A stretch of 20,896 nt of DNA. Origin: Archangium sp. (GTDB lineage Bacteria; Myxococcota; Myxococcia; Myxococcales; Myxococcaceae). Numbering within the stretch: the stretch's first letter is position 1; every line of letters begins with the position of its first letter. This document shows, piece by piece, positions 11,499 through 13,027 of this stretch. The position numbers and the translations under genes were made by a program. The stretch covers positions 1 to 20,896 of the forward strand of contig JAEUJS010000455.1 of the NCBI GenBank assembly GCA_016792935.1, in the 5' to 3' direction. The notes under the pieces were generated by a model, which was not told the origin of the DNA, did not search any database, and worked only from the letters and a program-made list of their open reading frames with translations.

Positions 11499-12065
11499 TC
11501 AGAGTTGGGCCATCCACTTCGCGAGCGAGGGCGACCGCGAAGTATCCAGCGGCTTTGGGGCGCCCTTGATCAGCTCGCACATCTTCGTGTCGTTCGAGAG
11601 GTCGTTCTCCCGGACGAGCGTCTTCGCGGCGTCCCGAGACAGCGACTCGGGGTTCTTGAGCAGCTGAGCGATGGCGATGATCCAGGCCTCGATCGCCTTT
11701 TCAGGCAGTCCGCCAATGATCTCGAGGTCCGCGCGTTCTTCTTTGAGCTGCGCGTGGGCGGCTTCGAGCAGGTTGACTCGCTCCGTACTTCCGTCCGAGT
11801 CGCGAGCCCAAAGCAACACCTCCGCGCCCGCTTCGTCTGCGAGCAGGGCGGCGCCCTGAAGCGTGCGCGTGTCGCCATGGGCTTGGCCCACGCGGTACTT
11901 GCGCACGTCCTTCCAGACGACGCCTCCGATGACGGTGCCTTCGCGGCGCGTTCGAAAGAGTTCGGCCAATACGCCGTCGGTTCTCTTTGAGAGGTTTCGA
12001 TACTCGGGCGATTCAGACCACTTGCCGATTTCGGCTGGTCCCTCGCCAGTGACGAACAGTTTCAT
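11499..12065 (-). CDS. Toprim-like protein (DUF4276/RloB/OLD-family nuclease-domain-like), partner of the upstream ATPase.
   Basis: N-terminal MKLFVTGEGPAEIGKW matches the conserved Toprim Glu motif (hhhhxEGxxE). LLWARDSDGS gives a DxD metal-binding motif. Size 188 aa. ATG overlaps the ATPase stop (ATGA, 4-nt overlap). It ends 14 nt before the MVP ORF on the same strand. Confidence 0.75.
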   Translation of the reverse strand: MKLFVTGEGPAEIGKWSESPEYRNLSKRTDGVLAELFRTRREGTVIGGVVWKDVRKYRVGQAHGDTRTLQGAALLADEAGAEVLLWARDSDGSTERVNLLEAAHAQLKEERADLEIIGGLPEKAIEAWIIAIAQLLKNPESLSRDAAKTLVRENDLSNDTKMCELIKGAPKPLDTSRSPSLAKWMAQL

Positions 12066-13027
12066 TTCGTCCCAGTTGCCTTGCTCTCGAAGAGTGGCGC
12101 CTCGGAGATTCCATCTGCGTAGCTCAGCCAGAGTTCGCCCAGTGCGTACACGCTCGATCGTTTGGCGAAGTTCGGAGTCGAAGCGATCGGCGTGAACTTC
12201 GTGCCTTCTGCTTCGGTGCGCGTCACGAGCGTGACTTCGTCGGGCTGCAATTCGTTGACGACGAGCGGACTGTGAGTCGCCAAGACCACCTGCGTAGTCT
12301 TCGAGATCTCTCGAAGAACCTTCATCACCACGCCGATGCGCGCTGGGTGAAGGCCGTTCTCTGGCTCCTCGATCAGCAGAAGTGACGTGGGGGCCAAGTA
12401 AGGAACGAGCGCGAACGCCAGGAAGTAGAGCATTCCTTCGGACATGTGCTCGGGACCGACTATTGGGCCGTTCCTGAGCTTGACGCCGATTCGCCGCCCT
12501 TCACTCGTCGTCGAGAGCGAGAACTCTTCGACGGTCGGGAAGAGCGCAATGAAGGACTTCTCGATCTCGAGGTAGTTCTTCTTGCTGCGCGCAAAAACCG
12601 CATCGAGAAGTGCACCGAGCCCCTGACCGCGATCATTCGCGAACTGCAACGGCTGACTGTCGGTCAGAAGTGGAAGCGGTGCGCGAAGGTGGTCGGGATC
12701 GAGGCGGAGCGTTCGGGCGCTCGCCCAGTTTTCGTGCGTCCCCTCCGGAAGACGATCAACCGCCTGGCCAGCGACAATCCACTGCCAGCCCTCACGAACT
12801 CGATAACTCATCGTGAGGTTGCCCTTCGTCGCGGCCAGGTAGTCGCTGGGCGGTTTAGTCTGCAAAGGGAAGAGGGAAGCAGCTTTGAGCGCCTCCAACG
12901 TCTTCGACTTGCCGGAATCGTTCGGGCCAATCAGCGCGTGCAGTCTCGTGAGACCGCCCAGCCGTGCGGCTCTGATTGGCCCGTGCCCTTCGGCATACAG
13001 AGAAGTGAAGTGAGGAAAGGCGCTCAT
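12062..13027 (-). CDS. ABC/AAA_21-type ATPase (SMC/RecF/OLD-like nucleotide-binding domain only).
   Basis: Walker A GPNDSGKSKT, Walker B/D-loop SLLLIEEPENGLHP, H-loop VVLATHSPLVV, signature-like HMSEGMLYFLAF. 321 aa with no fused nuclease. It is paired with the downstream Toprim gene. Confidence 0.85.
   Translation of the reverse strand: MSAFPHFTSLYAEGHGPIRAARLGGLTRLHALIGPNDSGKSKTLEALKAASLFPLQTKPPSDYLAATKGNLTMSYRVREGWQWIVAGQAVDRLPEGTHENWASARTLRLDPDHLRAPLPLLTDSQPLQFANDRGQGLGALLDAVFARSKKNYLEIEKSFIALFPTVEEFSLSTTSEGRRIGVKLRNGPIVGPEHMSEGMLYFLAFALVPYLAPTSLLLIEEPENGLHPARIGVVMKVLREISKTTQVVLATHSPLVVNELQPDEVTLVTRTEAEGTKFTPIASTPNFAKRSSVYALGELWLSYADGISEAPLFESKATGTK

Follow-up and report, generated by a model that had tools for sequence, protein, structure and literature searches.

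A gene pair encoding an ABC ATPase and a small Toprim-like protein is probably a horizontally exchanged cassette of a divergent HEC-01/DUF4276-type clade, mainly of Myxococcota

Introduction

Several described systems combine an ATP-binding cassette (ABC) ATPase with a Toprim-type protein or domain. HEC-01, a candidate system in PADLOC, consists of the ABC ATPase HEC-01A and the TOPRIM protein HEC-01B (bioRxiv 10.1101/2024.01.29.577857). The DUF4276 (PF14103) partners of AAA_21 ATPases include MAD3/MAD4 of the methylation-associated defense system, and DUF4276 and RloB have both been assigned to the Toprim superfamily, sharing the Glu and DxD positions by which Toprim is defined (PMC12065111). 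The best-understood mechanism for this architecture is that of PARIS, in which an ATPase scaffold (AriA, an ABC ATPase) frees a nuclease (AriB, a DUF4435 Toprim protein) when a trigger is sensed (PMC11464382). Here, we describe a two-gene module of this kind on a contig of a metagenome-assembled genome (MAG) of Archangium sp. (JAEUJS010000455.1; 20,896 nucleotides, hereafter “the window”; all coordinates are window positions unless another contig is named). Its first gene (12062-13027, minus strand) encodes an ABC-type ATPase of the AAA_21/AAA_15 type (321 aa), recognized from its open reading frame (ORF), its motifs and its matches to Pfam and to HEC-01A of PADLOC. Its second gene (11499-12065, minus strand) encodes a small Toprim-like, DUF4276/HEC-01B-related protein (188 aa), recognized from a family profile, invariant residues and a structure model. 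The two overlap in an ATGA stop/start (12062-12065, minus strand), which, as read from the sequence, implies that their translation is probably coupled.

The closest known system is the class of HEC-01 and the DUF4276 partners of AAA_21 ATPases. Our preferred reading, held with moderate confidence, is that the pair is a horizontally exchanged conflict cassette combining an ABC ATPase with a Toprim-like nuclease, belonging to a divergent HEC-01/DUF4276-type clade found mainly in Myxococcota; the nuclease activity of the small protein and a conflict or defense role of the pair are putative, proposed by analogy. The class itself (ABC ATPase plus DUF4276/RloB-type Toprim protein, as in PADLOC HEC-01 and MAD3/MAD4) is known. 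What is new is its extension to a sizeable clade that current models do not see, together with clean evidence of the insertion site. Because current models of Pfam, PADLOC and NCBIfam all miss the small subunit, defense censuses of the large genomes of myxobacteria under-count this clade.

Results and Discussion

Sequence features of the ATPase

Both ORFs of the original prediction were recovered at the coordinates and with the overlap it gave, and the ATPase carries every motif claimed for it: Walker A GPNDSGKS (residues 34-41, with K40), a signature-like MSEGM (195-199; SEG at 196-198), the Walker B/D-loop LLLIEEPENGLHP (216-228) and the H-loop ATHSP (250-254, with H252). Searches with hidden Markov models (HMMs) placed it above the Pfam cutoffs of the two families that had been suggested for it (AAA_21, PF13304: 84.9 bits, E = 1.3e-23, cutoff 27; AAA_15: 48.8 bits, cutoff 32.1). 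Its best PADLOC match was HEC-01A (PDLC04175; E = 2.6e-27, 93.8 bits), and nine more HEC-01A models also matched. Further PADLOC matches were to AriA (3.1e-23), PDC-M07A, mad3 (3.7e-18), Old (2.3e-16), PDC-M25A, GajA (1.2e-15), AbiLi (4.2e-13) and PtuA; the Old and GajA models aligned to residues ~214-283 of the ATPase only. The best NCBIfam match was MAD3 (NF047739), at 85.7 bits and thus below the curated cutoff of 420. A RecF-like placement had been named in advance as a finding that would speak against defense; in Pfam, no RecF model matched the ATPase and no RecR model matched the small protein, and the SMC_N score of the ATPase was 26.2 bits against a cutoff of 40.

In an alignment of eight partner ATPases, the Walker A motif, SEG, LLxEEPENGLHP, ATHxP and a C-terminal YALGELWL were invariant, and residues ~45-105 were highly variable in both length and sequence. 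Sensor inserts with this pattern of variability have been described in defense ABC ATPases (bioRxiv 10.1101/2024.01.29.577857).

A family of Toprim-like small proteins

The small protein (100% identity to the entry “hypothetical protein JNM17_25575 [Archangium sp.]”) retrieved only two homologues in a word-indexed search, at 55 and 53% identity. A HMMER scan of 1.84 billion cluster representatives with a three-sequence profile extended the family to 410 proteins at E ≤ 1e-3, of which 303 also reached E ≤ 1e-10; almost all have lengths of 185-215 aa. The named members come from Myxococcota MAGs (Polyangiaceae, Minicystis, Sandaracinus and Archangium), and no precomputed Pfam domain was found on any of them. 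The Toprim-like Glu of VTGEGPAE and the DxD of DSDG, on which the original prediction had relied, were both located: E8 lies directly after the first strand, and D89 and D91 belong to an RDSDG motif. All three residues are invariant in an alignment of 73 sequences, in which G7, G9, R88, R96, E126 and W128 are invariant or nearly so; in an alignment of 120 sequences the invariant positions are E8, G9, G14, G31, R88, D89 and W128. The signature of the family can be written as GEG ... RDxDxxxxR ... (I/L)EAW.

A structure model built with AlphaFold2 (AF2) from three sequences was unusable (pLDDT [predicted local distance difference test] of 54) and was replaced by a run on the 73-sequence alignment (pLDDT 96; predicted TM-score 0.91). 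In this model the order of elements is b1 (residues 2-7), helices, b2 (44-50), a helix, b3 (83-87), a helix, b4 (115-119) and a helix, with a helical tail at the end. E8, an invariant residue, follows b1, RD89xD91 follows b3, and E126 of the IEAW motif follows b4; E8, D89, D91 and E126 are putative metal-binding residues. The small protein thus has the conserved Glu at the end of b1 and the DxD after b3 that are expected of Toprim domains, both invariant in the 73 sequences. One family member, P0057 (371 aa), joins the family domain to a C-terminal P-loop region like that of shikimate kinase (GFMATGKTTIG...); this fusion could be real or an artifact of gene calling.

The small protein had been described as DUF4276/RloB-like, a claim that fits its family better than the protein itself. 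HMM searches of the window's own protein for DUF4276, RloB and Toprim found no match, so that it falls outside Pfam DUF4276 (PF14103; gathering threshold 30.2 bits); it also matches none of the PADLOC families at E ≤ 0.1, including HEC-01B, and PADLOC would therefore not call a system here. When 120 family members were scanned singly against Pfam and PADLOC, weak matches to the expected families recurred. In Pfam, DUF4276 was matched by 14 of the 120 (best E = 0.0048) and RloB by 6 (best E = 3.4e-4), all below threshold, and no unrelated Pfam family recurred comparably, except DUF5983 at E ≥ 0.044. In PADLOC, HEC-01B (PDLC04210) was matched by 38 of the 120 (best E = 9e-7) and PDC-M25B by 41 (best E = 1.5e-5), with single matches to mad4 and to AbiLii (E = 0.0094); AriB/DUF4435 was absent from the 22 PADLOC families matched by these relatives.

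Comparison with DUF4276 proteins of plasmids points the same way. The six small proteins encoded downstream of the nearest plasmid ATPases all match Pfam DUF4276, four of them above the gathering threshold, and the family HMM matches three of the six at E ≤ 0.003, with RDxD...IEAW of the family aligning with VDRDDDD...EELEAW. Profile-profile alignment (hhalign) of the family gave E = 7e-4 and a probability of 26% against the six plasmid proteins, and E = 1.4e-4 and a probability of 53% against 126 DUF4276 sequences; comparisons of single subgroups with DUF4276 were weaker than the pooled comparison. Searches of PDB sequences with a profile of the family and with one of DUF4276 returned no meaningful match, and a Foldseek search of PDB and BFVD returned nothing at E < 1e-3, the best BFVD entry (TM-score 0.44) being an “RloB-like protein”, a result that does not discriminate. 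The evidence for Toprim kinship is consistent but not strong, and the family falls short of the formal Pfam and PADLOC membership thresholds. Nonetheless, these small proteins probably form a divergent branch within the DUF4276/RloB Toprim-like group, and homology of the small protein to Toprim is probable.

The absence of a significant Foldseek match and an hhalign probability of at most 53% would also suit a flavodoxin-like adaptor or regulator, in which the acidic motifs serve some role other than that of a Toprim nuclease. We consider this quite doubtful, because the invariant Glu after b1 and the DxD after b3 occupy exactly the positions that define Toprim (PMC12065111), because the family matches HEC-01B, DUF4276 and RloB repeatedly and no other family, and because its ATPase partner is obligatory, as it is in the HEC-01B, DUF4276 and RloB families.

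Gene pairing and genomic context

Ten loci were compared (the window, L001, L003, L004, L005, L006/7, L008, L009, L010 and L011). In all ten, the small gene is directly preceded by a gene for an AAA_21/AAA_15 ATPase, and in eight of them the two genes overlap by 4 nt. The remaining neighbors are unrelated from locus to locus and are for the most part ordinary genes, encoding hydrolases, kinases, GTPases, transketolase and sigma-54 activators. The nearest relatives of the ATPase on plasmids (<31% identity) are likewise followed, with a 4-nt overlap, by a Pfam DUF4276 gene; a tblastn search of plasmids with the small protein itself gave no match. These plasmid pairs lie inside an Hma-like locus (methyltransferase-ATPase-DUF4276-helicase), in BREX-1 (between PglX and PglZ), in type I restriction-modification (R-M) loci (between S and R) or beside an AIPR gene, and it is in such a defense-locus setting that HEC-01 was defined (bioRxiv 10.1101/2024.01.29.577857).

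The pair shares several features with HEC-01. In both, two co-oriented overlapping genes encode an AAA_21-type ATPase and then a Toprim-like protein of ~190-230 aa; the ATPase of the window matches HEC-01A (2.6e-27) and 38 of 120 relatives of its small protein match HEC-01B (best 9e-7), and the A and B genes are adjacent and co-oriented in the window and adjacent in 10 of 10 loci, the window among them. The pair differs from HEC-01 in being a free-standing chromosomal insertion in Myxococcota rather than part of an Hma, R-M or BREX locus. With the DUF4276 partners, the small protein shares its size, an N-terminal (G/v)EG...E, an acidic motif after the third strand, (I/E)EAW after the fourth strand, a C-terminal S(L/F)xxW(L/F) helix and the same ATPase partner with a 4-nt overlap. 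It differs from them in the RDxDxxxxR of its family, where many DUF4276 proteins typically have a single D, and in its Pfam results (no match for the window protein; 14 of 120 relatives at E ≥ 0.0048, below threshold), and the ATPase, at 85.7 bits, is far from the MAD3 cutoff of 420.

The original prediction had looked instead to OLD, AbiL and PARIS as the nearest kin, which the comparison did not bear out; pairs of the HEC-01/DUF4276 type are closer. PARIS shares the split into an ATPase and a Toprim effector, and AriA matches the ATPase (3.1e-23), but no AriB/DUF4435 match occurs in 120 family members and the proteins of the window, at 321 and 188 aa, fall far short of the size of those of PARIS (about 55 and 35 kDa). 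AbiL (the ATPase AbiLi with the RloB-like AbiLii), OLD and Gabija also join an ABC ATPase to a Toprim-type domain, and the C-terminal motifs of the ATPase match AbiLi (4.2e-13), Old (2.3e-16) and GajA (1.2e-15). However, OLD and GajA each consist of one polypeptide, in which the Toprim plus helical domain is larger, whereas the window has two separate ORFs, and in the case of AbiL only 1 of 120 family members matches AbiLii (0.0094) and 6 match RloB.

Several results weigh against a conflict cassette of the HEC-01/DUF4276 type. The only HEC-01 representative tested gave no protection from phages in Escherichia coli (bioRxiv 10.1101/2024.01.29.577857). By Pfam labels, none of the ten contexts of the pair is a recognizable defense island or has Hma, R-M or BREX neighbors, and searches of viral contigs with the small-protein alignment or the ATPase found no relatives. 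Except for a VMAP-C hit (0.038) that carries no meaning, the small protein of the window matches nothing at E < 0.1 in Pfam, PADLOC, NCBIfam or PHROGs, and profile-profile support for DUF4276 reaches a probability of only 26-53%.

Insertion site and allelic exchange

The pair is flanked by two copies of a 12-bp direct repeat, found by a repeat search: ACTTCTGATCAG (CTGATCAGAAGT on the strand of the genes) at 13041-13052, upstream, and its downstream copy at 11483-11494. The upstream copy lies 14 nt before the start of the ATPase gene and overlaps the stop codon of a Cys-rich ORF; the downstream copy lies 5 nt after the stop codon of the small gene, and the copies are spaced 1558 bp start to start. 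Allowing up to one mismatch, CTGATCAGAAGT occurs twice in the window, against 0.06 matches expected, and none of 100 shuffled sequences reached two. The relative Archangium sp. 5N606 (L039), whose major vault protein (MVP) homologue is 89% identical to that of the window, presents the empty site: a sigma factor gene, the Cys-rich ORF and the MVP gene follow one another with nothing between, and a single CTGATCAGAAG is found at the homologous position. Its Cys-rich ORF is two codons longer, the insertion having altered the last codons in the window.

A second relative, the Logan contig L001, shows the site occupied by another version of the pair, with only the upstream copy of the repeat retained. 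Its proteins are 93% (sigma factor), 96% (MVP), 84% (the 204-aa protein downstream of MVP) and 91% (AurF-like protein) identical to those of the window, against 59% for the ATPase and 55% for the small protein. At the DNA level, identity is 85.5% up to position 13033 and again from 11500, which are the edges of the two genes, and between them only a match of 68% is left. When the window is compared with L001, synonymous divergence (dS) amounts to 1.8-2.3 for the cassette and 0.35-0.61 for the flanks, with a ratio of nonsynonymous to synonymous divergence (dN/dS) of about 0.2. By the contrast in dS, the cassette alleles are far older than the split of the genomes, and by the dN/dS both are subject to purifying selection. 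The cassette has a GC content as low as 0.585-0.62, where the surrounding sequence has 0.65-0.70. The site thus exists in three states (empty, with a cassette and a 12-bp duplication, and with a 55-59% divergent allele plus two extra genes). Taken together, the empty site, the repeats and the divergent allele indicate that the pair acts as a single cassette, its two genes being gained, lost and exchanged together, and the site offers a clean natural example of such gain and exchange in which the movement of two-gene modules could be studied.

The two extra genes of L001 (2582-3166 and 3172-3759 of that contig) are tandem paralogues of 194 and 195 aa that stand between the Toprim-like gene and MVP and are not present in the window. 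Both products end in ...RFRW, their N termini are possibly beta-barrel-like and signal-peptide-like, and neither has a Pfam match.

These patterns bear on the possibility that the pair is a housekeeping module for DNA repair or recombination, akin to RecF and RecR, which likewise consist of an ABC-type ATPase working with a Toprim-domain protein. The two fold classes, the mostly ordinary chromosomal neighbors and the purifying selection at a dN/dS of about 0.2 would all agree with such a function, which we nonetheless regard as very improbable: no RecF or RecR model is matched (SMC_N reaching 26.2 bits of the 40 required), the small protein has neither a helix-hairpin-helix nor a zinc-finger motif, and the pair is horizontally exchanged, being polymorphic in presence between close relatives, placed differently from genome to genome, and set apart by a dip in GC and a dS 3-6 times that of its flanks.

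An unrelated locus, the JGI contig L009, also carries a repeat around the module, in this case a direct repeat of 47 nt at 98% identity (1998-2044 and 3966-4012 of L009); of its two copies, the downstream one is the 3' end of a gene for a sigma-54 activator. In a search of ±500 nt, flanking repeats exceeded chance in two of nine loci only, the window and L009. No recombinase is encoded in the 1.56-kb cassette.

It is possible, if unlikely, that the pair is a selfish cassette and not a host defense, its nuclease and ATPase serving either spread (homing-like cleavage of empty sites) or retention (in the manner of a toxin and antidote). The precise insertion with a target duplication, the empty site in a relative, the 47-nt repeat of L009 that duplicates the 3' end of a neighboring gene, the lack of a recombinase in a unit of 1.56 kb, contexts that are not defense islands and an HEC-01 without a defense phenotype would all be explained by it. 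Set against these are the restriction of above-chance repeats to two of nine loci, with unlike lengths (12 and 47 bp), and the position of the plasmid relatives inside R-M, BREX and Hma loci, as would be expected of accessory defense genes. To our knowledge, moreover, no Toprim-type homing endonuclease is known. A stronger form of the same idea, which we think quite unlikely, is a recombinase-less mobile cassette whose own Toprim nuclease and ABC ATPase act as homing-like machinery for mobility. Such an element would integrate at gene 3' ends and duplicate its target there, over 12 bp around the CTGATCAG palindrome here and over 47 bp in L009. If true, it would be a minimal mobile element of a previously undescribed kind and could explain why HEC-01-type pairs show no defense phenotype.

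Under the preferred reading of the pair as a conflict cassette, the ATPase, presumably as an oligomer, would be both sensor and regulator by means of its variable insert, on the model of PARIS, OLD and Gabija, and the small protein would be a Mg2+-dependent nuclease effector directed against invading DNA or RNA, or else part of an addiction module. The cassette would have inserted with a 12-bp target duplication between the Cys-rich ORF and the MVP gene.

Relation to the major vault protein gene

The next gene 3' of the small gene, on the same strand and outside the module, encodes the bacterial MVP homologue (9232-11418, minus strand; 728 aa; Pfam MVP_shoulder, 3e-31). Following the gene call in L001, its likely start is the ATG at 11418 (MADRDS...), which sets the gap to the small gene at 80 nt, instead of the 14 nt given by the longest ORF. 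The pair was originally placed directly upstream of MVP; the shared strand stands, but the genes are separated by this gap and do not nearly abut. No terminator-like or sigma-70-like site was found on the minus strand by a simple consensus scan, and transcriptional read-through from the cassette into MVP is possible. Rfam and tRNA scans of the window found no match.

The shared strand, the 80-nt gap with no predicted terminator and the recurrence of the pair upstream of MVP in L001 could suggest that the pair works with the MVP homologue (for instance in loading a vault-like particle, or in remodeling or guarding one) and that this is why it is co-transcribed with it. Comparative data largely refute this, and we hold it to be extremely improbable. 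A scan of one genome per species yielded 57 MVP loci, mostly from Myxococcota with some from Planctomycetota and Acidobacteriota; none of these loci from other species has a member of the small-protein family (HMM E ≤ 1e-3) or an ATPase like that of the window within 10 kb, and conversely MVP is absent from seven of the nine informative loci of the pair. L039 has the sigma factor, Cys-rich ORF and MVP arrangement without the pair, in L001 two further genes separate the pair from MVP, and MVP retains a conserved leader of its own. This last consists of ~45 nt before the MVP start (GCGTGGCACATCGCTCGCTTTGTCGAAG), nearly identical between L001 and the window, with partial conservation in L039 (within 11418-11499 of the window, 3771-3853 of L001 and 9894-10001 of L039). 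It is conserved whatever lies upstream and could serve the bacterial MVP gene as a leader or in regulation. The association that had been singled out as unusual is thus incidental, the proximity of the pair to MVP being an accident of insertion with no functional tie. This removes a false lead, as bacterial MVP homologues have no conserved link to the pair. The upstream regions of the MVP loci L020, L022-L026 and L049 are not syntenic and are uninformative on the site.

On the other side of the cassette, the Cys-rich ORF (13039-13218, minus strand; 59 aa; MPSVSDQPFPQSKCTTCQFLREV...ECTFFVGKSDQK, with the pattern CxxC...C...C) forms the left flank, outside the module, between the cassette and a divergent sigma-70-like gene. 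It is conserved in L001 and L039, with 79% identity to the latter, and has no Pfam match. A metagenome scan with this ORF found two unrelated loci lacking sigma factor, MVP and ATPase genes, which are uninformative on the occupants of the site. A palindrome-containing sequence, TCTGATCAG, is present at each end of the Cys-rich ORF and once more after the cassette (11486-11496, 13041-13052 and 13196-13206, as inverted repeats) and may be a site of recombination or regulation. The sigma-70 region-4 gene diverges from the Cys-rich ORF, the two start codons being only 31 nt apart, and 3' of it lies a gene for a Ser/Thr kinase that has SAF domains and, at its N terminus, a zf-HC2 (anti-sigma-like) motif; this plus-strand layout (13250-16057) is shared with L039.

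Downstream of MVP (7853-9287, minus strand) are genes for a Lys/Ala/Pro-rich protein of 204 aa and for a homologue of AurF-like di-iron oxygenases (PF11583, below threshold). The trio of MVP, the 204-aa protein and the AurF-like protein is kept in L001, L021, L039 and L049, suggesting that the latter two may be true functional partners of MVP. In L049, from another Archangium MAG, ~8.6 kb (12097-20752 of that contig) separates MVP from these two genes, which would make a second variable spot of the region downstream of MVP. Full-length MVP homologues (52-61% identical) were also found in L038, L040-L042, L046, L050, L053 and L057, in non-syntenic neighborhoods and in MAGs labeled as Planctomycetota, Gemmataceae, Blastocatellia/Acidobacteriota and even “Clostridia”. 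Bacterial MVP homologues have been described from Myxococcales, Cytophagales and Oscillatoriales (bioRxiv 10.1101/872010), and the range seen here is wider.

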